Under the pieces are notes generated by a model, which searched no databases, was not told the DNA's origin, and saw only the letters and a list, made by a program, of their open reading frames with translations. The position numbers were made by a program, and so were the translations under genes. From positions 23,472 through 87,471 of the forward strand of contig JBAXQK010000002.1 of the NCBI GenBank assembly GCA_037131775.1: 64,000 nt of DNA, in the 5' to 3' direction. This document shows positions 10,730 to 59,595 of this stretch, piece after piece. Numbering within the stretch: the first letter of the stretch is position 1; the number at the start of each line of letters is the position of its first letter. This stretch comes from Candidatus Uhrbacteria bacterium. GTDB lineage: Bacteria > Patescibacteriota > Patescibacteriia > UBA9934 > GWF2-40-263.

Positions 10730-11206
10730 CTATTTTTTCTTTTTTCCCGCCTTCGGTGCTGCGATGAGCGAGCGCAGCAGCTCCTCGAACGTCTTCACGT
10801 CGTCAAACGACTGGTACACCGACGCGAACCGTATGTACGCCACCTTGTCGAACGCCTTCAGTTGCTTCATGAGAAGCTCGCCAATGTCCTTCGCCGTCAG
10901 TTCCCCGCGCCGCTTCTTCTGGATGTCGCGCTCGATCTTGTGCACGATCTGCCGCAAATCGGCCTCCGTGTACGGCCGCTTTTCCAACGACTTCTCCAAC
11001 CCCTTGATCAACTTGTCCCGCGAATAGCTCTCCCGCCTCCCGTCCCGCTTCACCACGGTCAGGTCCAGCAGTTCCATTTCCTCGAGCGTCGAAAACCGAA
11101 ACTCGCACTTCTCGCACTCGCGTCGACGCCGAATGTTCATCCCGTCGGTGGATAACCGGGAGTCGACGACCTTCGTGTCGGAATTGTTGCAGACGGGACA
11201 GCGCAT
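10730..11206 (-). CDS. nrdR: transcriptional repressor NrdR
   Basis: Starts MRCPVCNN with the zinc ribbon CPVC...CEKC, followed by an ATP-cone. The longer track ORF N-terminus is repeat read-through. Confidence 0.9.
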   Translation of the reverse strand: MRCPVCNNSDTKVVDSRLSTDGMNIRRRRECEKCEFRFSTLEEMELLDLTVVKRDGRRESYSRDKLIKGLEKSLEKRPYTEADLRQIVHKIERDIQKKRRGELTAKDIGELLMKQLKAFDKVAYIRFASVYQSFDDVKTFEELLRSLIAAPKAGKKKK

Positions 11207-11213
11207 AAAAAAA

Positions 11214-11290
11214 GTGGTGGAGTGATGGAGTGGTGGAGTGGTGGAGTTTAACACTCAATCACTCAATCACTTCATCACTCCATCACTATT
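11214..11290. repeat. family-A palindromic repeat element (two arms of 8-mer units around loop TTAACA)
   Basis: GGTGGAGTGATGGAGTGGTGGAGTGGTGGAGT ... CTCAATCACTCAATCACTTCATCACTCCATCACT was seen. It lies between the ftsZ stop and the nrdR start. Confidence 0.75.
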
Positions 11291-12727: not shown

Positions 12728-12756
12728 ACTTTAGGTTGATGGGGACGTGATGTCAA
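12728..12756 (-). promoter_or_regulatory. candidate ftsZ promoter (TTGACA-17-TAAAGT)
   Basis: On the minus strand, a consensus -35 and a moderate -10 sit about 70 nt upstream of the ftsZ ATG. They partly overlap the family-B palindrome. Confidence 0.3.
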
Positions 12757-14151: not shown

Positions 14152-14161
14152 AGTGATGAGA

Positions 14162-14530
14162 TTATAGCACAGTCTCGACGAAGTACGGCCAGAAGATGAC
14201 GATTCCCGCAACGAGGGAGACGATCGAGGCAATGAGGACGGCCCCGGCCATGATGTCCTTGATGTCGCGGACGATCGGATGAATGCGAGGCTGGAAGCTG
14301 TCGACGAGCCGTTCAAAAATGGTGTTGACGATCTCCAGCGTGAGGACGGCGCCGATCAGCAGGAGGATAATGAGAAACTGGTTGGTGGAGATTCGATAGA
14401 TCGCCGCGAGGACGATTGCCGCGACCGCGCCGCAGACCTGGATGCGAAACGACTGTTCTGCCTTGAAGACAACGGACACGCCTCGCAGTGCGTGCCGCAC
14501 GCTTGAACACAAATTTTGTATGTGGATCAT
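14162..14530 (-). CDS. dgkA: diacylglycerol/undecaprenol kinase (DgkA family)
   Basis: 122 aa with 3 TM segments. The E..N.IE..VD motif (EIVNTIFERLVD) is present. It overlaps ybeY by 4 nt. Confidence 0.8.
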   Translation of the reverse strand: MIHIQNLCSSVRHALRGVSVVFKAEQSFRIQVCGAVAAIVLAAIYRISTNQFLIILLLIGAVLTLEIVNTIFERLVDSFQPRIHPIVRDIKDIMAGAVLIASIVSLVAGIVIFWPYFVETVL

Positions 14531-14949
14531 ATTCGAGTGTCAACACCGAGTGTTGACAGGATGCGCGTCTGGCGCGGAAACATCTTCTTCGCGTCTTTCG
14601 GCTCGATATGGTCGTATCCGAACGTATGCAGAATACCGTGGACGATCAGGAACACCAGCTCGTCGCGCGTCGAATGCCCCATCTCCTTCGCCTGCCGGAC
14701 GGCCTGCGGATAGCAGAGCAGGATCTCGTTCGACGTCTCAAAAGAAAGCACATCGGTCACGTAGTCGTGCCCGCGCCACTTCTTGTTCAAGGCCCGCATC
14801 TCGCGCTCGCCAACGAACGCGATCGAGAGTTCGACGTCCTTCCGCGGCTTCAGCTCCGCGTCGCAAGCCGCCAGCGCCCTGGCAACCAAAGCGTGCGGCA
14901 GGCACTGGCCCCCTCGCAGCTTCGATTGATTTATCTCGAAGGAAATCAC
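14527..14949 (-). CDS. ybeY: rRNA maturation endoribonuclease YbeY
   Basis: The metal-binding motif HGILHTFGYDH is present. Confidence 0.9.
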   Translation of the reverse strand: MISFEINQSKLRGGQCLPHALVARALAACDAELKPRKDVELSIAFVGEREMRALNKKWRGHDYVTDVLSFETSNEILLCYPQAVRQAKEMGHSTRDELVFLIVHGILHTFGYDHIEPKDAKKMFPRQTRILSTLGVDTRI

Positions 14950-15986
14950 AGCCAGGTCACGCTATTGATCATCATCTTGAACGTCTGGAGATAGTCGACG
15001 GTCGCCTTGGCCGCCGTGGCCATCTTGATCGTCATGACGAAATCGGTCCCAAGGACATAGCCGGTCAACTGGTCCTCGCTGATAAATATCTGGTAACCGT
15101 TCTTCGTGACCGTCTTCGTGACGGCCGCCGTCAGCCCCTGGGCCTTGTACCATGCGGAAAGGTCGGAGACGAGGGCTCCTCCCCCCTTCGCGAGCGCGAT
15201 CGTAACGGTCTCTCCGGTGGTCGACACGATCGTGACCGGGCTGTCATTCGATTCCGACACGGCCGGCTTGACCGACCAGACCGCGGGATAAAACAGGGAG
15301 TAGGACAGATTGCCCGGAAGTTCGCGCGTAGAGACGGTCGGCCCTTGGTATACCTTCACGAGTCCTGCGGCATAAAGCGTTCCCGGGGACGTCCCTGCCG
15401 GGTTGTAGCGGTGGTACACCTCGTTCCCGTCCAGGAATCCGTCGGAGTCCGTGTCCGGAAGCTTCGGGTTCGTTCCATAGATGAGCGTCTCTTCCAGGTC
15501 GGACAGTCCGTCGGAGTCCGTGTCCTTTCCCGGGGCGACCGCCGTCGGGAACGGGCTTTCCGCGGGCTTGGGAGTCTCGACCGGCTTGGGAGTCTCGACG
15601 GGCTTGGGCGTGGGCTTCGGGACGGGGGTCGGCTTCACGACAGCCACCGGGACCTCGACGGGCTTCGCGACCGGCTTCTGCGTCCCGCTCACGATGACAA
15701 TTGCCGCGACGATGAGACCGACGATCAGGATTCCTCCCGCGCCGATCATGATTTTCATCCCCTTCGAGAGTTTCTTTTTCTTCGGCACCCCTGCGACGGC
15801 CGGATTCGCGGCAACCACCGGCGGAGCCGTCACGGGACGAGCCGCCGCTGCCGGAACCGCCATCTTCTTCCCCGTCGCGCCGTGCCGATATTCCTCCGGC
15901 ATCACGAACATCGCCGGTTCCGCGAGGGGAACGGTCGAGGTCAGCGGTTTCTCCAACTGTTGTTGAGGATTCGGCGCGTCAGACAT
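14946..15986 (-). CDS. type-II membrane protein with Pro/Val-rich stalk and TSP3-like Asp-rich repeats (paralog A)
   Basis: A single TM segment is followed by repeats DTDSDGLSDLEE and NPKLPDTDSDGFLDGNEVYHRYNP, then a C-terminal beta domain. Confidence 0.6.
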   Translation of the reverse strand: MSDAPNPQQQLEKPLTSTVPLAEPAMFVMPEEYRHGATGKKMAVPAAAARPVTAPPVVAANPAVAGVPKKKKLSKGMKIMIGAGGILIVGLIVAAIVIVSGTQKPVAKPVEVPVAVVKPTPVPKPTPKPVETPKPVETPKPAESPFPTAVAPGKDTDSDGLSDLEETLIYGTNPKLPDTDSDGFLDGNEVYHRYNPAGTSPGTLYAAGLVKVYQGPTVSTRELPGNLSYSLFYPAVWSVKPAVSESNDSPVTIVSTTGETVTIALAKGGGALVSDLSAWYKAQGLTAAVTKTVTKNGYQIFISEDQLTGYVLGTDFVMTIKMATAAKATVDYLQTFKMMINSVTWL

Positions 15987-15998
15987 ATGAAAGGTTCG

Positions 15999-16640
15999 TT
16001 ACGGGGTGGTGGTCGTTCCAAAAAGTTTTCCAGGGCCGTTCGGATTGTATCCCTTCTTCACCTCGGCGCCGTCGAGATACGTGTCGCCGTCGGTATCCGG
16101 GTTCAGCGGGTTCGTGTGATAGGTGTAAACCTCCTCCTTGTCGAACAGCCCGTCCGCGTCCGTGTCCGCAGAGGTCGGGCTCGTGCCAAGCTTGGCTTCC
16201 TCCGAGTCAGTCAGCCCGTCCTTGTCGCGGTCGACGATATCGGACATCGGCTTCGGCCCGTCCGTCACCACGTCCGGGACAACCGCGGCGTCATTCGAAA
16301 CGACGGGCGCCGGCTTCGTAACGACCGGAGGAGTCACGGCAGCCGGCGGAGTCACGATCGCTGGAGCGGCGACCGTCGACGTATCGGGCTCCACGGGAAC
16401 GGACGATCCCTTTGCCGCGAGCATGAAGTACGCGATGGCCCCCGCCGCGCCGACCACGACCAGGACCGTGGCGACGATAACGATCGGCTTCCACGAAACG
16501 GACCGAGGCGCGAACGGCATCGAATCCGATACGGGCATCGCCGGCGTCTCCGGAAGGTCTTTGGGAACTAGCGCAGACGGAGGGGCGATCGGCTCGACGT
16601 TAGCGAAGATATCCTCGGGGGGTTTAACATTCTCGAACAT
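15999..16640 (-). CDS. type-II membrane protein with TSP3-like Asp-rich repeats (paralog B)
   Basis: TM segment followed by DRDKDGLTDSEE and NPLNPDTDGDTYLDGAEVKKGYNPNGPGKL. Confidence 0.6.
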   Translation of the reverse strand: MFENVKPPEDIFANVEPIAPPSALVPKDLPETPAMPVSDSMPFAPRSVSWKPIVIVATVLVVVGAAGAIAYFMLAAKGSSVPVEPDTSTVAAPAIVTPPAAVTPPVVTKPAPVVSNDAAVVPDVVTDGPKPMSDIVDRDKDGLTDSEEAKLGTSPTSADTDADGLFDKEEVYTYHTNPLNPDTDGDTYLDGAEVKKGYNPNGPGKLFGTTTTP

Positions 16641-16650
16641 ATGGGAAGGT

Positions 16651-16688
16651 GGATACGAACCTACGAATTAGCTACGAAACTACGAACC
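16651..16688. repeat. family-B half-copy
   Basis: GGATACGAACCTACGAATTAGCTACGAAACTACGAACC was seen between the TSP3 paralogs B and C. It overlaps the stop of paralog C. Confidence 0.6.
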
Positions 16689-17489
16689 GAGTTTTCCGGC
16701 GCCGTTCGGGTTGTATCCGCCGTCGATCTCCACCTTGTCGGAGTAGCCGTCGCCGTCGGTGTCGGGATTCGTATCTGATGATCCGTATGACCGCTCCTCG
16801 TCCGCCATGAGCCCGTCAAGGTCAACGTCTCCGGTCCCAACAAGATCCGCGCAACGGCTCTGTTCCGTCTCATCGGAGAGCTCCAAGCATTTGCTCGGAT
16901 CCTTTGCCGCCACCGCCGCTTCGAACTGAGCGAGCTTGTCACAGACCGTCTGATCCGTTCCACGTTCCACACAGTTGGCCTCGGTAAGCGGACCGTCGAC
17001 CGAATTCCTGCATCCGTCTTGTTTGGCCGCGTCCTGAACCTTGTCGCAGAAAGAGGGGTCTTTCTGCGAGAGGGCAAGACGAACGTTGATCTGGTCGGAG
17101 CACATCTTCGCACGTTCGACGTCGGAAATCGCCGCGCAGCTCTCCGGATCCTCTCTGTCCTTTGCGACGGTCCAGACACAGGAGTCATGATCGGATCCAG
17201 TCAGCTGTTCGCAGACGGTCGACGCGCCGGTCGCCTTGGCCGCGAGCAACACCTTCTTGTTTCGACACTCCTCTGGGTCCGGTTCCTGAGCGCACCCAGC
17301 CAATGACGACGCAAGTTGCGTCTCAATGCGATCCATGTTCTGTGAAGCAATCTCCACTTTTTGGCGACTGCGCACGAACAGAACGGCCCCGATGATCAGC
17401 GCGACCGCAACTACCGCCGCCCCCGCAACGAGGGCGACGATTTTCCATGGCGGACGCGTCGAATCGGATGTTTGGTCGAAGCCGTTCAT
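16680..17489 (-). CDS. type-II membrane protein with Cys-rich region and TSP3-like repeats (paralog C)
   Basis: TM segment, a 12-Cys extracellular region, and a C-terminal NPDTDGDGYSDKVEIDGGYNPNGAGKL. Confidence 0.6.
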   Translation of the reverse strand: MNGFDQTSDSTRPPWKIVALVAGAAVVAVALIIGAVLFVRSRQKVEIASQNMDRIETQLASSLAGCAQEPDPEECRNKKVLLAAKATGASTVCEQLTGSDHDSCVWTVAKDREDPESCAAISDVERAKMCSDQINVRLALSQKDPSFCDKVQDAAKQDGCRNSVDGPLTEANCVERGTDQTVCDKLAQFEAAVAAKDPSKCLELSDETEQSRCADLVGTGDVDLDGLMADEERSYGSSDTNPDTDGDGYSDKVEIDGGYNPNGAGKLGS

Positions 17490-17493
17490 AGGA

Positions 17494-20400
17494 TTATGGT
17501 GCGGGACAATACGTGAAGTTGATGTTACTGAAGGTTACATATCCGGTTCCAGTAAAGGTCGTGGACATCGGGATGGACATGTCCGACCCGGTGCACTGGA
17601 AATCCGGCGGAAACGGAAGCGTCTTGTCATTGCCGTCCGAAACGTTTCCAGTCGTCGTCACGGACGTCCCGGTCGAAGATTCCGTCGTAAGTCCGACGGT
17701 CACATTGATGATCGAGCTGATAATCGAATCGTACATCCCGGCCACGCCGTCCTCGTCCTGGGCAGAGAACGCGTATGTGCCTGTCGTGCAGTCGTTGATA
17801 TCCGCATACAGATGTCCACACGTTTCGCTGGACATGTGTGCCATATACGATGCGTATACGTCGTCGGTCGTCGCCGTTATCGCGGCCGTGTAGACGCTGA
17901 CGTCACCGCTTCCGCGGACGGCTCCATTCTCATCGTCGGCCGAACAGGTGCTCAGCAGTCCTTTGTCGACCTGTTTTGTACAGCAGTAGTAATTGGACGT
18001 TGTTTCGTCATCGAGGGTGGTCGAGGCATCGTTGCCGCAGCTCGGATGCGTTGTACCATCCTCGCACACTCCGGCGGTGGTAGAGTTCGTACACATCGTA
18101 CTCGTCTTACTGATGTAGGTCTGTCCATCCGACAAAAGAATGATCAGTTTCACGTCAGCGGAGGATGCATCAAGCTCAGTAATCGCCGCCTTCATCCCCT
18201 GATAGATTGGCGGCCCCCAGCCAAGGTCTGACTCAAGCGCGTATCCTTCAACGGTTGCGATGAGATCATTTTCATCCATCGACCCGAGCGCCGCGTCGAT
18301 CGTATACCCATCCCCGCCATAAACGCCGGATCTAACTGCGGAACTTCCAATTCGCATGAGTCCGACTTGCAAATCGCCGGACGAGAGCGAGTCATAGAGC
18401 GTTTGAATGGCAGTAGACTCCGACGCACTGACGATATCCATGCGGCTATATCCCGACGGAGGAGTAGACGTACACGTTCCACCGGTCCCGCACTCAGAAG
18501 AAGTTGTGCAGTCCGTCCCGACGACGGCGGTTCCCGCTCCGTCACAATGATTATTCCCATCGACCCAGTCGCCCATGGTTCCCGTATAATCCGTAATGAA
18601 GTACACGGCCACGCTCGGCGGGGTCACGTTCGAGGTCGTGTCTACGTCGGCCGTGATCTGGGTTCCCACGCTGCATGCCGGGATGTACAGGACGGCGCTG
18701 TCCGGGTTCAAGTCAGAGTCGGACGGGTAGCTGTAGAGGTTGATGGTATCCGACGCCGTTCCGCCCGCCTCGCTGGTCTGGCCGAGGACGGAAACGGTCT
18801 GGTAGCTGAACGGGCAGGAGGTGGAGCAGGTAGAGTCGCAGGTTGGGACGACGCATTCCGAATCCGCCCCGCAGGCGTTCCTGTCCTCCGTCGTGCTCGT
18901 GTGACCGGAAACGACCGTGCAGCGTTCGCCTTGCTTGGATCCTCCATTGCACACCCCAAGCTCGCGACAGGTGAAACCGGAATCGCATCCCGCCGAAGAG
19001 CCTTCCGTTCCTTCATTGACGGAACCGCACGTTCCGCCGAGGTCCGTCGCGCTGGTGCCACCCTCGCCGTCCGCGTTGTCGAAGCAGTAAAACGGAATGT
19101 CCGCCCCGTCGCACAGCTCCGTGCCATTGATCGCGCCGTCGCCGCAGTAGGCGCCCGACTTGGTCTTGTACTGGCAGTTGATGGTGCAGTAGTGGCACAT
19201 CCCCTCGTAGACGGCCGTACAGTCGTCGCCGTTGAGCGATCCGTCGTCGCAGGATTCCACCCCGGAATAAACGAGCTCGTCGCCGCAGACGTTCGCCTTG
19301 CAGTCGTTGGTGCAGGCGTCGGTGTTGTCGGTGTTACCGTCGTCGCAGACCTCGGTGCCGTCGACCGTGCCGTTGCCGCAATAGTCGGCGCTGACGCATG
19401 CGGTCCAGGTTCCCCAGGTGCAGGCGGACGTCGAGCAGGTTTGGGAACGGGCGAGGTCGTAGACGACCGTTCCGCAAGAACCGTTGCCGTCCGCGAGGTT
19501 AATGGCGTCGCAGGACGTTCCGTCGACCTTCAGGCCGGTCGAACTGTCGCAGATGCTACCGGAGTCAATGTCGGTGATCGAGTCGGCGTTTCCATCCGTC
19601 GCGCACACCGTGCTCGATCCGCACGACGCTCCGCCGTCGCCGCAGGAAGAACCGTCGGTGCAGTCCGCGTTCGTCGTGCATTCCGTTGCGTCCGCGCACA
19701 GTGCCCCGGACCATTTCTGATAGCCGCCGTCGCACTGCTCGGACCCATTCACCTCCCCGTCACCGCAGCTCGGGCCGGGGCTCTTGCAGTCGTAGGAGCA
19801 CGTTCCGGTCGGGCTGGTGGCGTACTGTCCGTTCGAAACCGCGCAATGGTTGAGCCGTGCCCAGCTCGGGGTCGTATCATACATGACCGCCGTGAAGTTC
19901 GCCGAAACGCCGCAGTCGCACTGCTCGCCGCCGGCAAGGTAACCGTCGCCGCAGGAAAAGGCGGAAGTGAGGGTGCAGTCATCGCCGCAGTGGCCGTAGG
20001 TCCCGTTAAGAGACCCATCGTCGCAGGTCTCGGTCGCGCCGTCCACGACGCCGTTGCCGCAGGAGTACGGCGTACAGACGCCGCCCGCGGCGACCGCGGT
20101 CGTCTCGTCCTGGAACGCGGAGCAGTCGGATAGGCACGTTGCAAGCATCGTTCCTGCCACGCCGTCAGAATCCGTACAGTCGACGGTCGTCGTGTCCCCG
20201 ATCTCGCACGCCTCGTATCCCTCGGCGGACGGATCTGTTTCCTTCGTATTCACTACCCCGTCGCCACAGATCGACGACGTTCCAAGGGTCACGCCGTAGC
20301 AGAATGCGGCCGGGTCCGTAGAAGAGACGAAGTTCGTCGGCGAGGCCGTGCCGGACGGGTGGTACTCCGCGGTCACCGTGCCAAGCGTGGACGGATTAAG

Positions 20401-23400
20401 CTCCTTCGCCCAAGTTCCCGCATCGAACTCAAGCTCCGTCGACAGCTCGAAGGACGTGCCGCCGACGCTTCGGTAACCGTAGACATGGGACTCGTCGGGA
20501 CAGGTGAAGGTGGCCGCGACCGAGTTCCAGCAGGTGGCGGACTCGTAGTTCTCGCCGTCGCAATTCATGAACTCGTTCACCGGGTCGGTGGGAAGCGACG
20601 TGCCGAGCGCGTTGCCAAGCCCCGCCGTCCACGACGGCCAGGTGCTTGTGGAGTACGAGCTGACAAAGGTGCCGTCCGCGAGCTTCGGAACGGAAGGCTC
20701 GCACGTTTCGGTTCCCGGACACTCGTCGTCCGCCGTACAGGTCTGGTTCGTGGTCACCGAGCAGAGGCCGTTCGCGGCGCCGTAGCCGTCGAGTTCGCCC
20801 GCGATCACGACGACGTCCTCCAGGCGGCGCATGTCGCGCGTGAGCTTGGCCTTGTCGGCGTCGCAAATTTGGCCGGAGGCGCAGTCGCCGTCCCAGACGC
20901 ACGGAATGAGGTCGCCCGTGGTCACGTCCGTCGGATAGCTTCCGTCCGTGCTCGACTGGCAGAGGTTGATGTCCGTGACGACGTCGTCATTGGCGTTGAA
21001 CGACCAGTTCGCCAGGATCTGCGCGAAAATTTCCTGCGAGGAAGCCTCCGCGTTCTCCGTATAGGAGATGGCGTACACGTTCGGGTAGATGGTCCCGGAA
21101 TTGGTGACGTTCGTGGCCGCGACGTACGTGGTGTTGCCGTCCGTGATCGCCTCGTAACCGTCTACCGTCGTGCTCGACGGGGATCCTCCGGTGAATCCCT
21201 GCGCGACATACCAGGCGGACGGGGTGAGGTACGAGGAATTCGGAAGCACACGGACGCCGATGGCGTCGGAAGTTCCCTCCACCTTGAAGATCAGGTCCTG
21301 GATGATGTCGGACGTATAGGATTCGACCGCGATTGGCGTCTCAAGCTCGGGAAGATCGTCGGTTGTGTCCTTCGCCACGCCGGCATCCTGGCAGTAGAAG
21401 AAGCTGAAATTTGAGTCGGCATCGAGATACAGGCCGTTCGAATTCTCGACGGTCGGGACGTTGTCGCAGACGTTTACGACGACCTTCAGGGTTCCGCTTA
21501 CCCCTCCGCTCGTTTCGCCGAAGGTGTTGGTCGCGCTGAACGCCGCGGTTGCCACGACGGATTCCTGGCCCGTCTTGTCGGAAGCGGTCACGGTGGATGC
21601 GGCGTCCGTCGAACTCGCCGACGAAACGATGTTTTCCGTATCCGCGTCAATGACGGTCGAGTCCCACGTCCAGCTCCAGCCGTAGCTCGCCGTCGGCTGA
21701 ATTTCCTCCTCGCGCCCGCCACGGACGGTGTTTGGAATCGACACGAACGCGTGCTGCTCGCCGGAAGCCGTGAACGATCCGACGCTTGGGTCGACGATGT
21801 CGCTCGCGGGAGTCACGCCCGTGTCCTCCACGGTCACGGAATCAAGACCGCAAATTTCCGTACCCGTCTGAAAGGTTACCGCGTATTTACCGTCCGGCGC
21901 CCCATTCGCGTCTACGCCAACGGCATGGGCGGAAAGAACGCCGTCGTTCAGGCCGTCGACCGCGTCGGTCAGGTCGGCGTCCTCCACCACGACAAGGGTG
22001 TAGTAGGAATTGGCCTCCAGAACGTCCGTAATGTTGAGCGAGACGCGCGAGCCGCCGAACTCGTTCGCCGTCAGCGAGTACGTCACGGGAGTCAGGCAGT
22101 AGGCCGTCGTATCCGCGGCCTGCGCGGTTCCACCGAACATGCCCGTGACGGAACGCACGACCCAATTCCAAGCGCGCGCGATCCACGAACGGCTCGCCGT
22201 GTCGCCGTACGCAAGCAGGCTTGCCTGGAGATAGCCGGACGGACAGTCGGCAATGTCGATCGCGTCGCCCGTCGACGTCGTCAGGGCGAGGTACAGGTTC
22301 TGGTGGCCTTCGCCGTAATCGAATACGCCCGTGTTCGGTCCCGCCGTATCGTCCCACGACATCAGCGAATTCGAGTCCATCACGTCCGAGAAGTCCACGT
22401 AGATCGCCGCGTTCAGGCACACGTTCGTCTCCCCGATTCCCTGGGAAACGGCCTCGACGGTCGGGCGCTCGAAGCAGCAGGAGGATGTCCCGCAGCCGTA
22501 CGCGTCGTCGCCGCACTGCGCATCGTTCTCACAGGAACAGGTCAGCGTAAGCGTTCCGCTTCCCTCCACGCCGCTCGTCGTTTCCGTTGCCGTAATCGAC
22601 GACTCCGCCGTGTGCGTGGTCGCGTCCACGTCCAAGACCGCCTCTGGATTCACGTAGGAGACGCCCCAATATCCAAAGGCGGTATCCCCGGACGGATCCG
22701 TTGCCGCGTCGCACTCCTCGGCACCCGTGTCAATGACAGCCCCGTTATACTCGTTCGTCCCCGTACGATGCGTCGTACCGTCGCCGCAGTAGCTCGACGT
22801 GCCCAATGACGATCCCTCGTCCACGCAGGATGAGGAACACCCGTCTCCGTTCGTGGTATTGCCATCGTCACAATCCTCGGCGCGAGGGCTCCAGGCGCCG
22901 GTTACGCCGCGGTAATCAATGCGTCCGTCGCCGCAGCACGGCGAAACGACAGGGAGACAGGCATCGGTGGCGCTTCCGCAGTATGTCGACGCGTCGGCCC
23001 CGATTCCCGGACAGTCGCTGGTGGGATTGTCGCGACAGGCGAACGCGCAGACGTTTGCCCCCTCAAACAGACAGATCGAAGAACATCCGTCTCCGCTGGC
23101 AACGTTGCCATCATCGCAGTCCTCACCGGAATCGATGTTGCTGTTTCCGCAGATTGAATTGTATCCGGAACGAGCCACGGTTCCCTCGTTCAGACAGTCA
23201 GAAGAGCATCCCGCGGTGCCGTCGCAATCCTCGCCTCCGTCGCTCGCCGACTGGTCGACAGTCGATCCGTCGCAGGAGGTGCCGGCCTTTCGCGCTCCGT
23301 TATTCAGACAGACGGAAGAGCATCCGTCGGAGTTGTCCGTGTTCGAGTCGTCACACTCCTCTCCGGTTCCGACCGCGCCGTCGCCGCACACGCTCGGGGA

Positions 23401-26400
23401 GCGGTAGTCCGCCGAAGCTCCCTCGTGCAGACAGGTGGTCGTGGAACACCCTTCTCCCCCGTCGCAATCCTCTCCTGGCTCCACCAGGCCGTTTCCGCAG
23501 AAATAGTCGCTTGTGGTCGCCTCCGATCCCGTGTTCAGGCAGTTCGAAGAACATCCGGTCTGAAGAACGGAAGTGATGCGAAGCGGGTCGGACGCGCTGT
23601 TCAGCATGGTCGCGACGTCGCCAAGGGAGGGGCCGGTCGCGTCGACGGCAGTCCACGCGTCCCAGCCGTAGCTCAGCGGGTCAAGCTCCTGGCCGTTCAC
23701 GGAGCAGCTGTCCCGGGCGCCGAACGGAATGGCCTGCCAAAGCGCCTCCTCGCCGATATGCGTTGCGGACGAAGATTTCGGGTCGGTCTCAATCCGATCG
23801 ACCGCGCACGGCTCGTCGGAATCCTTGGTCTTGAATTTCCAAGAAAAGTCGTTCGAGAACTCAGAATACCCGTTGTCCTCGGAAGGATAGTTGCTTCCCG
23901 ACTCCGACAGGGCCACGCCGGAGAGCGATTCGACGTCTCCGGAAATCACGACGCGGTACCAGGTGTTCTTGGTAAAGGGCTCCGAGTGCGTGAAGGTGAC
24001 GGACCTCGAGTCGGCGGAAAGGTCATACGAGACCACGTTGTCCCAGAGCGTCATCTCGCCCGAGTCGGTCGAGCAGAGCGAATCCTGGCAAGAGTAGATC
24101 GTGACGGTGCTGTCGGAAAAATTTTTCGATCCCAAAGCTGTCTCGTCCGCCATGACCGTGTTGAAGTCGGCGGTAATCCCTCCGTTCAAACACACCGAAT
24201 CGCAGCTCGGCGTCCAGCTGGTGACCTCCGGGTCGGTGAAGTTGATCGTAAGCTGTCCGGCGTCGCTCGGCTCGTCGCCCGTCGGGTTCACGGCCTGCGC
24301 GGTGATGTCTACCGGGGATCCGCTGGTGGTTTCGGCGATGGCGGTGGCGAGGGTGGCGCAGGAGCCGGTCGCGGAGGTCGTCGGTTCTACCGACGCAAGC
24401 TGCGACTGCGAGGAGTCCCACGTCCAGCCGTAATTCGTGCAATCCAACGCGACGCAGAAGTCATTCTGCGACAGCGCCAGTGCCGAATACGATTGGGTCT
24501 GCCCAGCCTCCGTTATCGTGTGCGCGGACGGACTGACGACGACGGATCCGATGTTACACGGCTCGGTCGTGGCGGCGGTCGTAAACGTCCAGGAATAGTC
24601 GTTCGCCATGAAGATTCCGTCCTCCGACGTAATTCCCGCGGCGTCGAGGGTCACGGTATACGTGGCGCTCGGCAGGAAGTCGCCTCCCGTCGGACTCCAG
24701 CTGAACGTATATCCGCCCGGCGTTTCGCCGTCCGCCATCACTCCCGCGATGTCCGCGCCGTCCGGATCCGTGACGTGGAGGTACGGGGCAAGGTCATCCC
24801 ATTTCATCATCGGCATGTCGAACGTCGCCGTGACGGCGGCGTTCACGCAGATGTTCTTCGACTCGCTCCAATTGTTCCACGGTGACGGGGACGTAACCAC
24901 GCCCTCGCTGCAGTCGACGACCACCTTCGGCGTCGCGGGAATCGTGGTGGTCGAGAACATCCAGGAGTAATGCGACTCCTGGGGCTCATCCGCGCAGATG
25001 GCCGCGCATTGACCGTTCGAGCAGCAGCTCGTTCCCTCTACGTCGCAGAAACCGTCGCCGTCGGCCAGACAGCTTCCAACCTTGAAATTCAGCTCGTTCG
25101 ATCGATACCCATTCGCGTCGGTCACGTACACGGGTCCGGTTTCGGCCGAGGCGGGCACGGTTGCCGTGACGGAAGAGAGCGACGAGTCCCAGCTCAGGAC
25201 GGACGCGCTTTCGGAAGACGAGAACGTCACGGACGCGGATCCCGTGTGCCTTCCGAGGTTGTCGCCCGCGATGTCGACGTTCGTGGTGGTCACGGGCCCC
25301 GAGACAGGATCAAGATTACAGATGCCCGGGCCCGGAGTGTCGTCGAGAACGGTAAAGTCCGTCGCCTCCGACGAGGCCGATCCCGTCTCGACGGTAAGCG
25401 AGTACGTCGCACCGAGCCCGATCGCCGAGCCGTCCGTGAACGTCGCGGGAACCTTCACGATGATTTCCGTATCGCCCCACGTGTCGGATCCGCAGGCCTC
25501 CGGAAAATCCGTATCGCCCCACGCGACGCTTCCGCTGGTGTCCTGCGCGGAAAAATGGACCGTGCCGGCCGTCGAGCCGAATCCGGTTCCGTTGATGGTC
25601 ACGTACTGCCCGATCGGCCCCCACGTGTCCTGGTCGTCGCACGTGTCTCCCGGATTGACCGCGGAACAGTCCGCATCGGCCGAGCAGCGGGTTCCCATCG
25701 CCTTGCATGCGGTCCAGCCCGAAACGACGGACGCGATGACCGGAGTGGTTCCTTCGGACGAGTCGACGACGGTGAATGACACCTTGTTCGATCCCTGGCG
25801 CAGCGAAACGCAGGATCCGTCCGTTCCGCAGTCGGAGTCCGTCTCGCAGAATGCGTCGGAACCGGAGCAGCGCATGGTTGCGCACGATTCGCCTGATGTC
25901 GTGTCACAGTCCGCGTCCGTCGCGCATGTGACCTGTGGCGTCACGGCCCCCTGGGTCGTCGCGCAAACGTAATCCCCCACCCAAACCTGAGTGTCATAAT
26001 CGCGAGCGTTCAGGAGCGGAACCTGGACGGATAGCGCGGCGGAGGCCCAGCTGTAGTAATCCGATGCCTCGTAGTTTCCAAAGTAGACCGTCGAGGTCCC
26101 TTGGCTCGATTCGCTCGATGAGGTGAAATTATTTCCCGAGAGTCCGACCGTCGAGTGACCGATTCCGGACGTCGGATCCGGCGGACACAGACCCGGACGC
26201 ACCACGGAGTTCACGTCAAAGTCACTGACGGTAGCCCCGTAGTCGTCGTTGGTGGCGTCGACGTACGCGTCGGGATGGGTCGCGTCGGTTCCGGTCGTGA
26301 CGCGAATCGGGCCGTCCTTCATGGAACCGGAAACCTGGACGATAATCTGCGTGTCCGTCCAGGTGGAACCGGTCTCGCACTGGTACTCGGACGCGGTCAC

Positions 26401-27882
26401 GGGGTTCGAGTACGTACCGTTCGTGTCGACGGCGCCAAGGAACTGCACGGTTCCCGGCGTCGATCCAAAACCGCTTCCAATGATGGAGATGATGTTTCCT
26501 TCCGTTCCATCGCCAGGCGAAACAGAGGTGATTTCCGGAACGCTCTCGCAAACGCCATCGACGACAAGTCCCGTCTCGGGATCAATTTCTCCGGAGCAGT
26601 ACCCGCTCGAGCAGTCGGCATTGGACGTGCACGGCGACCCGTCGCACGCGCCGCACTCGCTCGTTCCGCCGCAGTCGCCAGGCGGATCCGCCTCGCCATT
26701 GTTTGCAACGCCGTCGTTGCAGGAAGCGGGATAGACCTCAATGCTTACCCCGGAAGACGTGCTGGCGTGTCCGGCACAGTCCGTTCCCCTTGCGCGAATG
26801 GTATGGCTTCCCGTCGCGTAATCCGAAGAGACATACCACTCCGATCCGTCCGCGGTCGAGAAAAAATTTTCCGACGAAAGGGATCCGGCGGTCGAGTCCG
26901 TCGAGAGCGCCGCGTCGTAGATCGAATCCCCGTTGTCGATCGTAAAGGCAAGGCTCGAGACGCCCGTGTCGTCGACCGTGTACGCCTGCAGCGGTCGGAT
27001 CTCGTTCGTATAGACGGCCGATCCTTCTTCCGGGGCCGAAATTTCCATCGTGGTCGGGCCTTCCGTGTCCACGGCCGTCCCGGTCGTGAAGTCGAACGAG
27101 CACGGGTATGTCGTGTCGCACTTGTACGCCAAATCCGTCGAGCTCTTCAACGTTGTCGTACTCAGCTCAATCGTATAATCCGCGCCCGCGTCATAGCAAT
27201 GCTCGGTCGGAAATCCATCGGCGGAACAGTCCTGCGTCGGGGTGAACGTGGCCACCGTTCCGGCAACGGCGAACGTTCCCGGGACGTCCGTTCCAGACTG
27301 CTGTACGCGGATCCCACCATTGTTAATGGATTCGAGGCTGGGACTTTTACTGAAGGTAAACTGCAGGTTTACGTTTTTAATCGCGTACGCGCACTCGAGG
27401 TTGACGTCCGTCAAGACGAATTGACTCGACGTGCCTCCCCCGTCGCCGTATCCCCCGCCGTTCCCGCCGCTGCCCGACGACGTGCTCGTCCCGTTCAGTG
27501 CGCCCATCAGCTGGCCGAGGATAAACTGGACGATGGCGAATGCGGAAAGAATGATGACGAGACCGACGATCGCCGACGAGAACAGTTTCTTCGCGCTCTT
27601 GATCTTGTCGTCGTTCCCTCCCGACGTCATGTAGCGGAACCCCCCGACGAGAATCAGGACGACGGCGATGATGCCGAGGATCGAGATGACCGTTCGAATG
27701 AGCCTGGCGATGGTGATCGTGAGCGTCTCGCCCGTCGCAAGACCCGCGGTTTCCGCGAAGGAGCTCAGTCCCGAGGTCGGGTCCACGACCTGCGCGAACG
27801 CATGCGGGGCAATCGCAAGAGCTCCGACCGTTACGAAGACGGCAAAGAGGATCGAGAGCAGGCTCTTGCGGGAAAATATCAT
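17494..27882 (-). CDS. giant secreted/surface protein (3462 aa) with an N-terminal pilin-like module, IPT/TIG and Ig-like domains, Cys-rich repeats and a C-terminal vWA domain
   Basis: A 10.4 kb stop-free ORF. It has an N-terminal signal peptide plus a VirB2/TrbC-like two-helix module, then a Gly-rich linker. Further domains are IPT/TIG (ITSVSPGDG...GSGFG), many C-x-C-DDGN-x-NGDGCS-x-C repeats, and a C-terminal vWA domain (KLIILLSDGQ). Confidence 0.85.
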   Translation of the reverse strand: MIFSRKSLLSILFAVFVTVGALAIAPHAFAQVVDPTSGLSSFAETAGLATGETLTITIARLIRTVISILGIIAVVLILVGGFRYMTSGGNDDKIKSAKKLFSSAIVGLVIILSAFAIVQFILGQLMGALNGTSTSSGSGGNGGGYGDGGGTSSQFVLTDVNLECAYAIKNVNLQFTFSKSPSLESINNGGIRVQQSGTDVPGTFAVAGTVATFTPTQDCSADGFPTEHCYDAGADYTIELSTTTLKSSTDLAYKCDTTYPCSFDFTTGTAVDTEGPTTMEISAPEEGSAVYTNEIRPLQAYTVDDTGVSSLAFTIDNGDSIYDAALSTDSTAGSLSSENFFSTADGSEWYVSSDYATGSHTIRARGTDCAGHASTSSGVSIEVYPASCNDGVANNGEADPPGDCGGTSECGACDGSPCTSNADCSSGYCSGEIDPETGLVVDGVCESVPEITSVSPGDGTEGNIISIIGSGFGSTPGTVQFLGAVDTNGTYSNPVTASEYQCETGSTWTDTQIIVQVSGSMKDGPIRVTTGTDATHPDAYVDATNDDYGATVSDFDVNSVVRPGLCPPDPTSGIGHSTVGLSGNNFTSSSESSQGTSTVYFGNYEASDYYSWASAALSVQVPLLNARDYDTQVWVGDYVCATTQGAVTPQVTCATDADCDTTSGESCATMRCSGSDAFCETDSDCGTDGSCVSLRQGSNKVSFTVVDSSEGTTPVIASVVSGWTACKAMGTRCSADADCSAVNPGDTCDDQDTWGPIGQYVTINGTGFGSTAGTVHFSAQDTSGSVAWGDTDFPEACGSDTWGDTEIIVKVPATFTDGSAIGLGATYSLTVETGSASSEATDFTVLDDTPGPGICNLDPVSGPVTTTNVDIAGDNLGRHTGSASVTFSSSESASVLSWDSSLSSVTATVPASAETGPVYVTDANGYRSNELNFKVGSCLADGDGFCDVEGTSCCSNGQCAAICADEPQESHYSWMFSTTTIPATPKVVVDCSEGVVTSPSPWNNWSESKNICVNAAVTATFDMPMMKWDDLAPYLHVTDPDGADIAGVMADGETPGGYTFSWSPTGGDFLPSATYTVTLDAAGITSEDGIFMANDYSWTFTTAATTEPCNIGSVVVSPSAHTITEAGQTQSYSALALSQNDFCVALDCTNYGWTWDSSQSQLASVEPTTSATGSCATLATAIAETTSGSPVDITAQAVNPTGDEPSDAGQLTINFTDPEVTSWTPSCDSVCLNGGITADFNTVMADETALGSKNFSDSTVTIYSCQDSLCSTDSGEMTLWDNVVSYDLSADSRSVTFTHSEPFTKNTWYRVVISGDVESLSGVALSESGSNYPSEDNGYSEFSNDFSWKFKTKDSDEPCAVDRIETDPKSSSATHIGEEALWQAIPFGARDSCSVNGQELDPLSYGWDAWTAVDATGPSLGDVATMLNSASDPLRITSVLQTGCSSNCLNTGSEATTSDYFCGNGLVEPGEDCDGGEGCSTTTCLHEGASADYRSPSVCGDGAVGTGEECDDSNTDNSDGCSSVCLNNGARKAGTSCDGSTVDQSASDGGEDCDGTAGCSSDCLNEGTVARSGYNSICGNSNIDSGEDCDDGNVASGDGCSSICLFEGANVCAFACRDNPTSDCPGIGADASTYCGSATDACLPVVSPCCGDGRIDYRGVTGAWSPRAEDCDDGNTTNGDGCSSSCVDEGSSLGTSSYCGDGTTHRTGTNEYNGAVIDTGAEECDAATDPSGDTAFGYWGVSYVNPEAVLDVDATTHTAESSITATETTSGVEGSGTLTLTCSCENDAQCGDDAYGCGTSSCCFERPTVEAVSQGIGETNVCLNAAIYVDFSDVMDSNSLMSWDDTAGPNTGVFDYGEGHQNLYLALTTSTGDAIDIADCPSGYLQASLLAYGDTASRSWIARAWNWVVRSVTGMFGGTAQAADTTAYCLTPVTYSLTANEFGGSRVSLNITDVLEANSYYTLVVVEDADLTDAVDGLNDGVLSAHAVGVDANGAPDGKYAVTFQTGTEICGLDSVTVEDTGVTPASDIVDPSVGSFTASGEQHAFVSIPNTVRGGREEEIQPTASYGWSWTWDSTVIDADTENIVSSASSTDAASTVTASDKTGQESVVATAAFSATNTFGETSGGVSGTLKVVVNVCDNVPTVENSNGLYLDADSNFSFFYCQDAGVAKDTTDDLPELETPIAVESYTSDIIQDLIFKVEGTSDAIGVRVLPNSSYLTPSAWYVAQGFTGGSPSSTTVDGYEAITDGNTTYVAATNVTNSGTIYPNVYAISYTENAEASSQEIFAQILANWSFNANDDVVTDINLCQSSTDGSYPTDVTTGDLIPCVWDGDCASGQICDADKAKLTRDMRRLEDVVVIAGELDGYGAANGLCSVTTNQTCTADDECPGTETCEPSVPKLADGTFVSSYSTSTWPSWTAGLGNALGTSLPTDPVNEFMNCDGENYESATCWNSVAATFTCPDESHVYGYRSVGGTSFELSTELEFDAGTWAKELNPSTLGTVTAEYHPSGTASPTNFVSSTDPAAFCYGVTLGTSSICGDGVVNTKETDPSAEGYEACEIGDTTTVDCTDSDGVAGTMLATCLSDCSAFQDETTAVAAGGVCTPYSCGNGVVDGATETCDDGSLNGTYGHCGDDCTLTSAFSCGDGYLAGGEQCDCGVSANFTAVMYDTTPSWARLNHCAVSNGQYATSPTGTCSYDCKSPGPSCGDGEVNGSEQCDGGYQKWSGALCADATECTTNADCTDGSSCGDGGASCGSSTVCATDGNADSITDIDSGSICDSSTGLKVDGTSCDAINLADGNGSCGTVVYDLARSQTCSTSACTWGTWTACVSADYCGNGTVDGTEVCDDGNTDNTDACTNDCKANVCGDELVYSGVESCDDGSLNGDDCTAVYEGMCHYCTINCQYKTKSGAYCGDGAINGTELCDGADIPFYCFDNADGEGGTSATDLGGTCGSVNEGTEGSSAGCDSGFTCRELGVCNGGSKQGERCTVVSGHTSTTEDRNACGADSECVVPTCDSTCSTSCPFSYQTVSVLGQTSEAGGTASDTINLYSYPSDSDLNPDSAVLYIPACSVGTQITADVDTTSNVTPPSVAVYFITDYTGTMGDWVDGNNHCDGAGTAVVGTDCTTSSECGTGGTCTSTPPSGYSRMDIVSASESTAIQTLYDSLSSGDLQVGLMRIGSSAVRSGVYGGDGYTIDAALGSMDENDLIATVEGYALESDLGWGPPIYQGMKAAITELDASSADVKLIILLSDGQTYISKTSTMCTNSTTAGVCEDGTTHPSCGNDASTTLDDETTSNYYCCTKQVDKGLLSTCSADDENGAVRGSGDVSVYTAAITATTDDVYASYMAHMSSETCGHLYADINDCTTGTYAFSAQDEDGVAGMYDSIISSIINVTVGLTTESSTGTSVTTTGNVSDGNDKTLPFPPDFQCTGSDMSIPMSTTFTGTGYVTFSNINFTYCPAP

Positions 27883-27888
27883 AGCGCG

Positions 27889-29793
27889 CTAATTGGAAGA
27901 TTCTGGATTTGAGTCTGGAAGTTCCACGGTCGCCGGAGTCGTAAGCGTCGTATCAAGATTTGTCGTGTGGCAGGCCCTTTCGGATGGAAAGCCATTGCAG
28001 CAATACCTGGCCGTCGTCGTGCTCGTTCCGCACATCCCCGTTCCGGCCGCGTTCGGACCGTCCACGGGATACGCGCAGATTTGGTACGCGGACTTCACGT
28101 CACGCGTAATGACCGGGTCGTAGTCCCATCCGTTGTCCTCGTTGCTGACAAGACCCGGATGCGCGATCTCCACGGTCGTGTTGATCGTCTCGTCGTCGAC
28201 GACCAGGTCCGTCTTGCTCGTCGTAAACCAGAACTCATACCACGGGTCTGCCCACAGCGAGACGTTTGTCGTATTGAGCGTCGAGGATTTCATCGGAACG
28301 GAGAACGTCGCGGTTACGTTCGCCGACGGCGATGACAGCCCCTCGAGGATGCCCGGATGCATCTCGGTAATGGTCGGGACGGTGTCGTTTATCTCGTCGT
28401 TGGTCTGGAATCCCCAGACGTAGTTATCGTCGTCGGGACCCGTCCCCTCGTCATCGCCGTTTCCGTCGAGCGAGTTCGCGGACGCGTCCTCCAGGCCGTT
28501 TGCCGGCACGAAGATCGGATCGGCCTGCGGCGGCTCGTCGCCGACGCTCGCCGCCTTGGCCGTGACCTCGATCGCGTTCGTGCTCGCGCTGCCGCCCGGA
28601 GCCGGAAGGCAGTAGATGGTGTCGCCGCACGGATCGACGCCGCACGCCTCGGTCGGCGTGAACTCGATCGTCTTGTACGCGTTGGAAATTGAGAACGTCC
28701 CGTCCACGTATCCGCTCGCCGCGGTCGAGGAACCGACGGTGATGTTGCTGAACGTCTGCGTCGGGTTCGGATTTGACTCCGTCGGCGCCACGTACGTCCC
28801 CGTTCCGGCCACCGGGTCCATCGCCTCGTCGAACGTGATGGAAACGGTGATGTTTCGCGCATCGGTGGCGGAGGCACGCGGGATGACGGACACGACCTTC
28901 GGAGGAGTGAGGTCGACCTCCGTGGAAACCTCGAACGTCCACTCGTACCCATCCTGATTCGACGCGGTGAACGCGGCCGTTTTGTCCGCCTTCTTGATGC
29001 TGTTCGTCAGTTTGACGGTATAGTTCGTGTCGTCCGTCGAGCTGCCAAGGAGATCGACCGGGTCGAAGACGAAGATGGTGTGATCCGCGTTCATGGTCAC
29101 GGAAACGGCGCTTGCCCCCAGCTTCAGCGTATCCACGCTCGCCTCGTCCGCGGTCTTGTAGATCAGAACGTTCGCGGAATTCAGATCGGTGGAAGTCGGG
29201 CTCAGGTCGTAGCCGGAGATGATCGAGGCCGGATCGATCGGCTCCTTGAACGTCACCATGATGCGCGTGTTGCGCGGAATGCCGATCGCGTTGCGCTCCG
29301 GATAGTGCGACTCGATGATGCCCGCGCCGAGCGATCCGGAAAGCGGCTCGCTGTACCGGTCGGCGACGGACGTGCTTCCCGTCGCACCGCCCCAGTTGTC
29401 CAGCAGGCTGTTCAGGATGTAACTCGCGATCGTGAACGAAAAGATACAGAGGATCATTCCGATCACTCCGTTCTTGATCATGTCCTTCGCCTTCTTCAGC
29501 TTGGTGTCGTCGCCCTGCGCCGTCATGTAGATCCATCCGGCATAGAGGACGACGATCGTGAAGATGATCCCGAGCGTTCCGAGGAAGACGCGGATGACCT
29601 TCGCGATGATGATCGGCAGGCTGTTGGTGGACGCGCCGGCAGCCGCGGCCGACGTGGCGAGCTGCGTCGCCGCGCTCTGGACGGACTGCGCGAGCGCTGG
29701 GTGCGCGGCGGCAATAACGCAAACGGCGAGCACGCCAAAGGCGGCTCCGGCGGCGAGGCGGCTGCGCATAGTGTTTGGGAGAAAACGCATCAT
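27889..29793 (-). CDS. secreted protein (634 aa) with an N-terminal pilin-like two-helix module followed by SbsA/Big-type Ig-like domains
   Basis: The signal peptide ends AAHPALAQ. It is followed by helix-loop(GDDTKLKKAKD)-helix and Ig-like repeats (PPKVVSVIPRASATDARNITVSITFDEAMDP). Confidence 0.7.
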   Translation of the reverse strand: MMRFLPNTMRSRLAAGAAFGVLAVCVIAAAHPALAQSVQSAATQLATSAAAAGASTNSLPIIIAKVIRVFLGTLGIIFTIVVLYAGWIYMTAQGDDTKLKKAKDMIKNGVIGMILCIFSFTIASYILNSLLDNWGGATGSTSVADRYSEPLSGSLGAGIIESHYPERNAIGIPRNTRIMVTFKEPIDPASIISGYDLSPTSTDLNSANVLIYKTADEASVDTLKLGASAVSVTMNADHTIFVFDPVDLLGSSTDDTNYTVKLTNSIKKADKTAAFTASNQDGYEWTFEVSTEVDLTPPKVVSVIPRASATDARNITVSITFDEAMDPVAGTGTYVAPTESNPNPTQTFSNITVGSSTAASGYVDGTFSISNAYKTIEFTPTEACGVDPCGDTIYCLPAPGGSASTNAIEVTAKAASVGDEPPQADPIFVPANGLEDASANSLDGNGDDEGTGPDDDNYVWGFQTNDEINDTVPTITEMHPGILEGLSSPSANVTATFSVPMKSSTLNTTNVSLWADPWYEFWFTTSKTDLVVDDETINTTVEIAHPGLVSNEDNGWDYDPVITRDVKSAYQICAYPVDGPNAAGTGMCGTSTTTARYCCNGFPSERACHTTNLDTTLTTPATVELPDSNPESSN

Positions 29794-29873
29794 CGAGACG
29801 CTTATTTCGTCGCTCTCATTCTACAACAAAACCGCGTGCACGGATACACGCGGCATTTGAAAGTCTGTGGATA

Positions 29874-58128: not shown

Positions 58129-58133
58129 ATGTT

Positions 58134-59026: not shown

Positions 59027-59029
59027 TAA

Positions 59030-59556: not shown

Positions 59557-59595
59557 ATTTCCCGCTCATTATACCAGAAGACGAGGACTCTCGCC

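Follow-up and report, generated by a model that had tools for sequence, protein, structure and literature searches.

Patescibacteria form a large bacterial branch with tiny genomes, and many of them are thought to be attached to other cells; to our knowledge their surface machinery is largely unknown. Here we describe three neighbouring genes, named A, B and C, from a Candidatus Uhrbacteria bacterium, which were found in a 64,000-nucleotide stretch of contig JBAXQK010000002.1 (the whole stretch is called the window throughout). They encode predicted single-pass membrane proteins with Asp-rich repeats of the thrombospondin type 3 (TSP3) kind and are located between the gene of a giant protein of 3462 amino acids (aa) and ybeY. 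Their positions and those of the features discussed below are collected in Table 1.

Results and Discussion

Gene layout

An earlier note on this DNA had placed three tandem genes at 14946-17489, and three open reading frames (ORFs) running in the same direction on the minus strand are located there to the nucleotide; the start codons of A, B and C are consistent with those of their orthologues. A long ORF on the plus strand (14442-16571) in the same region, which has a GC content of 60%, is a shadow ORF; homologues exist for the genes of the minus strand instead. The giant gene and A are separated by 4 nt, A and B by 39 nt and B and C by 12 nt, and C overlaps ybeY as ybeY overlaps dagK. The earlier note had given the gaps to the giant gene and to ybeY as 0-12 nt; the gap between A and B is wider than this. 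Using the Kyte-Doolittle scale with a 19-residue window, exactly one strong hydrophobic segment was found in each of the three proteins (hydropathy 2.6-2.9).

Table 1: Genes and protein features of the A-B-C locus, with window positions.
Feature	Position	Strand	Length or residues	Basis
Gene A	16680..17489	(-)	269 aa	ORF, TSP3_bac match, homologues
A, hydrophobic anchor	17370..17441	(-)	~aa 17-40	Kyte-Doolittle 2.87
A, all-helical repeat domain	16851..17294	(-)	aa 66-213	12 Cys, six pairs
A, two TSP3 repeats, end GYNPNGAGKL	16689..16829	(-)	aa 221-267	TSP3_bac, alignment, DNA units
Gene B	15999..16640	(-)	213 aa	ORF, TSP3_bac match, homologues
B, N-terminal peptide MF(D/E)x(n)PEDIF	16605..16640	(-)	aa 1-12	alignment (n = 52)
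B, hydrophobic anchor	16416..16487	(-)	~aa 52-75	Kyte-Doolittle 2.56
B, three TSP3 repeats	16020..16232	(-)	aa 137-207	invariant positions, Bap match
Gene C	14946..15986	(-)	346 aa	ORF, TSP3_bac match, homologues
C, cytoplasmic motif AMFVMPEEYRHG	15879..15914	(-)	aa 25-36	alignment (n = 76)
C, hydrophobic anchor, KKKK before it	15687..15755	(-)	~aa 78-100	Kyte-Doolittle 2.91; AlphaFold2 (AF2) helix aa 75-101
C, two TSP3 repeats	15375..15530	(-)	aa 153-204	invariant positions, DNA units
C, C-terminal alpha/beta domain	14949..15374	(-)	aa 205-346 (~140 aa)	predicted PsbP/Mog1-like fold
Giant gene	17494..27882	(-)	3462 aa	Pfam: T4SS_pilin, Big_5, DUF4215
First VirB2-like-anchored protein	27889..29793	(-)	634 aa	Pfam: T4SS_pilin, Big_5
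ybeY	14527-14949	(-)		Pfam; overlaps C by 4 nt
dagK	14162-14530	(-)		Pfam; overlaps ybeY by 4 nt

Identity of the repeats

Judged by their sequence, the repeats of A, B and C are of the TSP3_bac type, a known Pfam family (PF18884, gathering cutoff 25 bits). Two DxDxDG repeats are present in A, three in B and two in C, all following the consensus DxDxDGxxDxxE, and the 22-residue unit DxDxDGxxDxxE...GT(D/N)P is shared with TSP3_bac. Protein B matched this family in three stretches with 46.3 bits and thus above the cutoff, and C (24.1 bits) and A (20.7 bits) came out just under it; a precomputed PF18884 match exists for many A and C orthologues. In the alignments of A (n = 19), B (n = 52) and C (n = 76) the Asp, Gly and Glu positions of the loops are invariant. 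Since DxDxDGxxD is confined to A, B and C among all six-frame ORFs of at least 50 aa in the window, it is no artefact of composition. The TSP3 likeness proposed in the earlier note is borne out by these profile matches, and the block is also kept in related genomes, both in the A, B and C homologues and across the Patescibacteria loci described below. It had been placed at the C-terminus of all three proteins; the block is indeed conserved in each of them, but in C its location is central (aa 153-204).

A likeness to dockerins had been proposed as well and did not hold up, as no Dockerin_1 match was found in A, B or C at E ≤ 1. Membership in the EF-hand family was also rejected, with EF-hand_6 and EF-hand_1 matching B only, at E values of 0.11 and 0.25 that are far under their cutoffs. 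The same applies to the eukaryotic thrombospondin type 3 repeats, as the Pfam model TSP_3 gave no match to A, B or C at E ≤ 1 and the repeats are without Cys (B and C have none at all, and in A none is located within the repeats). The Myxococcus TSP3 proteins CglD and MtsD could be dismissed because their NCBIfam models reached 19-28 bits against cutoffs of 400-800, and this in the repeat region only, and OmpA because no OmpA match was found in A, B or C.

Among solved structures, a sequence match was obtained only with region B of Bap from Staphylococcus aureus (PDB 7c7r and 7c7u), a Ca2+-binding module to which the B-family profile matches with E = 2.7e-8 (7c7r). Its DxDxDG loops align to repeats 1 and 2 of B; Bap is a sortase-anchored biofilm protein and the likeness to B spans ~50 residues only. 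For the repeats of A, B and C themselves, Ca2+ binding is predicted.

Three families of membrane proteins

The three proteins had also been regarded as paralogous, which is true for the repeat module and not elsewhere. In pairwise BLASTP comparisons of A, B and C only the repeat block aligns (44-62 aa, E 3e-7 to 6e-15), and no alignment is left once this block is masked. Recent tandem duplication or gene conversion was rejected, because the seven repeat-coding DNA units show a mutual identity of only 64-76% and nothing aligns beyond the block. As the likeness is limited to a repeat block of ~50 aa, the sequences make A, B and C three distinct old families of single-pass membrane proteins and no recent duplicates, with separate orthologue sets that each have their own features. 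A and B have in common a WK immediately ahead of the helix and an initial M(x)F(D/E), a hint at common descent and the sole one outside the repeats.

Protein A is composed of a short N-terminus (MNGFDQ...PPWK), one transmembrane helix, a Cys-paired helical-repeat domain and two TSP3 repeats. In its AF2 model a single long helix extends from residue 15 to 68. Recurring 'DPxxC...C' units make up the helical domain of ~150 aa, and from its 12 Cys, 11 are invariant and one is nearly invariant in the 19 A-type sequences. We found 18 full-length homologues, all Uhrbacteria-type, and the repeat count varies among the orthologues between two and three. The A-type stalk is mainly found in Uhrbacteria; outside this group it gave hidden Markov model (HMM) matches only in the Falkowbacteria-titled locus L052 and, weakly, in locus L022 of the survey described below. 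Protein A is 100% identical to GenBank entry MEI6510622.1, a 'thrombospondin type 3 repeat-containing protein' from a metagenome-assembled genome of Candidatus Uhrbacteria, and its repeat annotation is therefore already public.

Protein B starts with the cytoplasmic peptide MFENVKPPEDIF, which is followed by a transmembrane helix, a Pro/Val/Thr-rich spacer and three TSP3 repeats without any further part. At E ≤ 1e-3, 1299 homologues were found; the Pro-rich cytoplasmic stretch before the helix and the Pro/Val/Thr-rich outer spacer are variable in the family. In the N-terminal peptide M1 is invariant and F2, D10 and F12 are conserved in at least 90% of the 52 aligned sequences, with 44 of them starting with MF[DE] and 47 having the xEDIF element. 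Invariant in the same alignment are D137, D139, D141, G142, E148, D159, D161, D163, D167, E170, D182, D184, D186, D190, G191 and E193 of the repeats. The N-terminal motif occurs together with the TSP3 motif in one ORF in 36 fetched loci plus the window, and longer B-type proteins, with five or six repeats, have it as well. Among the window ORFs, only B combines this motif with a downstream transmembrane segment.

In protein C a conserved cytoplasmic tail and KKKK precede the transmembrane helix, and a PKPVET-type spacer, two TSP3 repeats and a domain with a predicted PsbP/Mog1 fold follow it. At least 222 homologues were found, and 1148 representative proteins match at E ≤ 1e-30; most of the best 150 among these 1148 match over their full length in a single stretch, and the others are very long proteins with many repeats. 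In 76 aligned sequences F27, M29, P30, Y33, R34 and G36 of the tail are conserved in at least 90%, and G153, D155, D157, D159, G160, E165, E166, P177, D178, D180, D182, G183 and D186 of the repeat region are invariant. Across lineages the tail motif takes the general form h-x-[TV]-[MI]-P-[EDK]-x-[FY] and can be recognised in the C-family genes of most of them, for example as FVMPEEYRHG, IHTMPEKFY, TKIPDDFYAG or IYVMPKEFQ; among the ORFs of the window it is found upstream of a transmembrane segment in C only. The PKPVET units of the spacer are partly encoded by an 18-nt tandem repeat (15552-15615, copies 75-79% identical), and length and sequence of this spacer vary freely among orthologues.

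For the C-terminal domain of C no Pfam match was found; PF27998 is listed as a precomputed match for two C homologues and was absent when these were rescanned. The predicted fold of this domain is an alpha-beta-alpha sandwich matching solved PsbP/Mog1/DUF1795-like members, among them BT_1490 (3hlz), cyanobacterial PsbP (2xb3) and the mycobacterial proteins LpqN, Apa and MTC28. The sequence identity to these proteins is 11-18%, and unlike them C has in addition a transmembrane anchor, a cytoplasmic peptide and TSP3 repeats. A divergent relative encodes a C-type protein with an extra fn3 domain.

An N-in/C-out insertion of A, B and C, the type-II topology of the earlier note, would be the most likely one, but the positive-inside rule supports it for C and B only. 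Counting Lys and Arg in the 15 residues on either side of the helix, the N-terminal side of C has 4.5 and the C-terminal side 1.75 (N>C in 66 of 76 family members), and the corresponding values for B are 2.4 and 1.6 (33 of 52). In A they are 2.1 and 3.7, with N>C in none of the 19 sequences and a reversed bias in 17 of them. The C-terminal flank of the A helix reads RSRQK, a charge bias opposite to that of B and C. That the Cys-paired domain and the repeats of A would be outside is suggested by the homology with B and C and by the Cys pairing, and not by the charge rule.

Because the short cytoplasmic tails of B and C are strongly conserved, they point to an intracellular binding partner. These peptides are concrete handles for finding such partners.

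A conserved gene string in Patescibacteria

A search with the B profile in a single genome of each GTDB species gave 80 loci, from which 42 (L012-L053) are Patescibacteria and include Uhr-, Magasanik-, Falkow- and Buchananbacteria, Paceibacter and records titled 'uncultured Gammaproteobacteria'. Their genes were called with HMMs built from the window and its relatives. Across these 42 species loci the gene order is nearly invariant, with one or more genes for VirB2-like-anchored large proteins, one or more small TSP3 genes, the C family and ybeY-dagK-ftsA-ftsZ. In full, the conserved string reads yqeY, a VirB2-like-anchored protein, a VirB2-like-anchored giant, (A), B, C and ybeY-dagK-ftsA-ftsZ. 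The C-domain gene is present in 39 of the 42 loci and has a small TSP3 gene directly upstream in 37 of these 39. In 31 of 36 loci C is directly followed by ybeY, and in 28 of 31 ftsA is at most four genes away from C. The small TSP3 genes are preceded by an ORF of 800 aa or more on the same strand in 26 of 28 informative loci. The VirB2-like pilin N-terminus of this ORF is visible in six cases and 16 ORFs are cut by the locus end, and for three of the remaining four the pilin-domain ORF is located one gene further up.

The number of small same-strand genes between the large ORF and C is one in 16 loci and two in 21, and judging from this gene content the trio of A, B and C is the Uhrbacteria state of a B + C core. 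All three small genes in the same order were found in Uhrbacteria relatives with 41-64% GC, and a Parcubacteria-labelled genome and one metagenome contig have two pilin-domain genes followed by B, C, ybeY, dagK, ftsA and ftsZ. The string, with two or three genes for Ca2+-type repeats, thus spans Uhr-, Magasanik-, Falkow- and Buchananbacteria as well as other Patescibacteria- or Parcubacteria-labelled genomes. The matches outside Patescibacteria (most of L054-L091) are large multi-repeat or OmpA-type proteins without such a context.

One lineage shows a variant of this order. In L046 (9464-20211) ybeY-dagK is replaced by clpP (on the opposite strand), secD, secF, a Wzy_C-TPR gene and pilD, which are followed by ftsA-ftsZ as assigned with Pfam, and B and C are still located after the pilin-domain genes, with ORFs of 981 aa and 96 aa between. 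In L022, L042 and L049 the ORFs after C match those of L046, by their sizes only. As this lineage keeps the pilin genes together with B and C and loses ybeY-dagK, B and C are tied more tightly to the large surface-protein genes there than to ybeY-dagK.

The Patescibacteria-type string is also found in many GTDB species-representative records (TPA assemblies) titled 'uncultured Gammaproteobacteria' (L013, L016, L018, L021, L024, L025, L030, L031, L033 and others), and judged by this gene order the titles are probably wrong. Another Patescibacterium (L009:4263-6931) encodes a sortase-family protein, P0142, in which five TSP3 repeats separate the transmembrane segment from the catalytic domain, and the gene adjoins that of a protein with a weak Cohesin match.

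The giant genes and transcription

Following a signal peptide, the giant protein has a VirB2-like two-helix hairpin (PF18895, T4SS_pilin) and then ~3300 aa with Big_5 domains and DUF4215 Cys-rich repeats. A signal peptide and a PF18895 hairpin are also found at the start of the 634-aa protein, with Big_5 domains after them, and its gene is likely the first of the string. Such a pair of pilin-domain genes is also present in L010, L011, L023, L029 and L037. At the C-terminus of the giant protein (17494-19200) the strands FITDYTGTMGD and IILLSDGQTY are VWA-like, and weak precomputed VWA matches exist for orthologous giant proteins; a Pfam search of this C-terminus in the window protein gave no match at E ≤ 1. 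It may be a divergent VWA/MIDAS domain.

Upstream of the 634-aa gene follows yqeY, with a terminator-like hairpin between the two (29831-29854, 10-bp stem), and between the giant gene and dagK no such hairpin was found. The lone sigma-70-like promoter match between 11 and 31 kb is located just upstream of ftsZ (12728-12756, minus strand), which lies together with ftsA downstream of dagK (Pfam). The positions of hairpin and promoter suggest a long transcription unit from 29793 through ftsA. As the scan gave fewer promoter and terminator sites than were found in shuffled sequence, the assignment of an operon rests mainly on gaps and overlaps. Co-transcription of the giant gene with A, B and C would be consistent with the 4-nt gap, the overlaps and the lack of a terminator-like hairpin.

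Possible role of A, B and C

We propose that A, B and C act as accessory proteins of the giant surface proteins, tethered to the membrane and stiffened by Ca2+, a reading that we regard as an even call. All three would be inserted N-in/C-out, and Ca2+ would fill the Asp-rich loops and convert the repeats into compact, rigid modules. These might be held above the membrane by spacers, which are Cys-paired and helical in A and Pro-rich with ~50-60 residues in B and C. The part of C with the PsbP/Mog1 fold could act as a binding domain after the repeats, the cytoplasmic peptides MF[D/E]...PEDIF of B and h-x-T-M-P-E-x-F/Y of C would bind an intracellular partner, and A, B and C would thus serve as accessory or adaptor subunits of the co-encoded giants. 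A partnership with the giant proteins is suggested by the 4-nt gap, the location on the same strand and the absence of a terminator-like site until after dagK, as well as by the large ORF that is kept upstream in most informative loci and by the variant lineage of L046.

Several points weigh against this proposal. The synteny also covers ybeY-dagK-ftsA-ftsZ, and the adjacency may partly be an inherited order in compact genomes; adjacency alone is weak evidence, since the whole string including ftsA-ftsZ is syntenic. The earlier note had suggested envelope anchors or docking partners of the appendage proteins, but with its own VirB2-like membrane hairpin the giant protein needs no additional anchor. 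The loci were sampled from B-like genes, and VirB2-like giant genes without B and C are therefore outside the count. Furthermore, A and C score just under the gathering cutoff for TSP3_bac, the flank charges of A are reversed, and the repeats of A, B and C are free of Cys, unlike the one solved bacterial OmpA TSP3 structure, in which a disulfide within the repeat is reportedly required for Ca2+ binding (Dai 2017, as cited in PMC12045341).

The same loci can also be explained if the three proteins are general components of a monoderm envelope that bind Ca2+ in the wall zone as spacers or cation reservoirs and do not work with the giant proteins, with their place beside the giant gene being an inherited order, which we consider possible but rather unlikely. 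They would then be comparable to the TSP3 linkers of OmpA-type proteins, and TSP3_bac repeats do occur on many unrelated envelope proteins (OmpA-type, the sortase P0142 of L009 and very large multi-repeat proteins of other phyla). B has an anchor, a spacer and repeats alone, the entire string from yqeY to ftsZ is syntenic, and the adjacency of ybeY and dgkA, which is also old in Firmicutes, counts in the same direction. Strongly conserved cytoplasmic peptides as in B and C would be unexpected for passive wall spacers, however, and the adjacency to the pilin genes persists where the downstream neighbours have changed. Alternatively, these peptides could bind FtsA or FtsZ, encoded a few genes further on, and B and C would be lineage-specific bitopic proteins coupled to the divisome or cytoskeleton, functionally analogous to FtsN, FtsQ, RodZ or PilN, with outside parts acting on the wall. 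The short distance between C and ftsA mentioned above argues for such a function, and even in the variant lineage (L022, L042, L046 and L049) ftsA is located ~7 kb downstream. The layout, in which a short conserved peptide at the N-terminus is followed by a transmembrane helix, a Pro-rich linker and a domain on the outside, is similar to that of known bitopic partners of actin-like proteins, such as PilN with PilM and FtsN with FtsA, and one source (JGI) labels a C homologue as 'cytoskeletal protein RodZ'. We nevertheless regard a divisome function as distinctly unlikely, as no sequence or fold likeness to FtsQ/POTRA, FtsN/SPOR or RodZ was found and C was rejected as FtsQ, FtsN or RodZ in searches for POTRA, SPOR and HTH/DUF4115. 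In addition, ybeY and dagK are located between C and ftsA, and ftsZ itself is preceded by a sigma-70-like promoter.

We give hardly any credence to the idea that the repeat pairs are dockerin-type modules inserting into cohesin-like domains of the giants in the presence of Ca2+, the strict form of the docking role suggested in the earlier note, even if paired EF-hand-like Ca2+ loops resemble dockerins in outline and the TSP3-bearing sortase of L009 is encoded beside a protein with a weak Cohesin match. Besides the missing Dockerin_1 match in A, B and C, neither the giant protein nor its neighbour gave a Cohesin match at E ≤ 0.01, and spacing and consensus of the repeats are those of TSP3_bac and unlike dockerin. 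A combination of two of these functions would be that B and C are transmembrane couplers, whose peptides bind FtsA or FtsZ and whose Ca2+-loaded TSP3 and PsbP-like ectodomains hold the giant proteins. This is very unlikely in our view, but if it were true, the cytoskeleton or division machinery would be physically linked to a giant surface fibre, and the host-contact apparatus could be placed or partitioned during division.

Comparison with known systems

If A, B and C are indeed partners of the giant proteins, they would define a conserved envelope module of these organisms and, after TraA/TraB, provide the second example of a Cys-rich surface protein with a TSP3-bearing partner. In Myxococcus xanthus the Cys-rich surface receptor TraA forms a 1:1 complex with TraB, a TSP3-bearing protein from the same operon (PMC3325183, PMC12045341). 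The giant protein also has Cys-rich repeats (DUF4215) and is encoded beside TSP3-bearing envelope partners. However, TraB combines an outer-membrane barrel with TSP3 and OmpA parts, whereas A, B and C are bitopic, and TraA has a PA14 domain and a MYXO-CTERM tag, whereas the giant protein is anchored by a VirB2-like hairpin. Homology is limited to the repeats, and the likeness would be a functional one only.

The same repeat is found in OmpA-family TSP3 proteins, which were retrieved via the repeat block and for which a structure is cited in PMC12045341 (Dai et al. 2017, Cell Calcium 66:78). In contrast to these, A, B and C are without beta-barrel or OmpA domain and have a single transmembrane helix, only two or three repeats and a monoderm-type cell as their context. 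Eukaryotic thrombospondin and COMP type 3 repeats follow the same Asp-rich logic of Ca2+ binding (DxDxDGxxDxxD; Kvansakul et al. 2004, as cited in 10.1101/2023.11.21.568195), but A, B and C have no disulfides in the repeats, very few repeats and no C-terminal lectin-like domain. The PF18895 T4SS_pilin domain of the upstream genes is the one of the VirB2-like pilin arrays of Patescibacteria, which have been described as small pilins near virB4 (10.1101/2025.01.22.634366). Here it is the N-terminal anchor of a 634-aa and a 3462-aa protein in a housekeeping neighbourhood. The words 'thrombospondin' and 'calcium' do not occur in that work and no TSP3 partner is described in it.

Whereas the TSP3_bac repeat family and the GenBank name of A are already known, no description of this module was found in the searchable literature on TSP3 in Patescibacteria, the Candidate Phyla Radiation or Uhrbacteria, on PF18884 and PF18895 and on the Patescibacteria divisome. 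Within this literature we found no account of the gene string that joins VirB2-like-anchored giants, TSP3 membrane proteins and ybeY-dagK-ftsA-ftsZ, of bitopic TSP3 architectures including TSP3 with a PsbP-like domain, or of the conserved cytoplasmic peptides of B and C, all of which therefore appear to be new.

Further observations in the window

The listed ftsA ORF (12889-14316, 475 aa, TTG start) overlaps dagK by ~150 nt, and its orthologues have ~419-424 aa; translation probably starts further inside, at a codon near 14150. The ORFs at 10730-11254 and 9468-10727 match, by size only, the NrdR and HtrA genes that follow ftsZ in relatives. Directly downstream of secY (59663-60937, minus strand) there is a low-GC island (58130-59600) with ~35-39% GC against a background of ~62%. 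No tRNA or Rfam match was found in it. It contains four small ORFs on the minus strand (184, 113, 96 and 85 aa) and, judged by its composition, looks like a foreign insertion.

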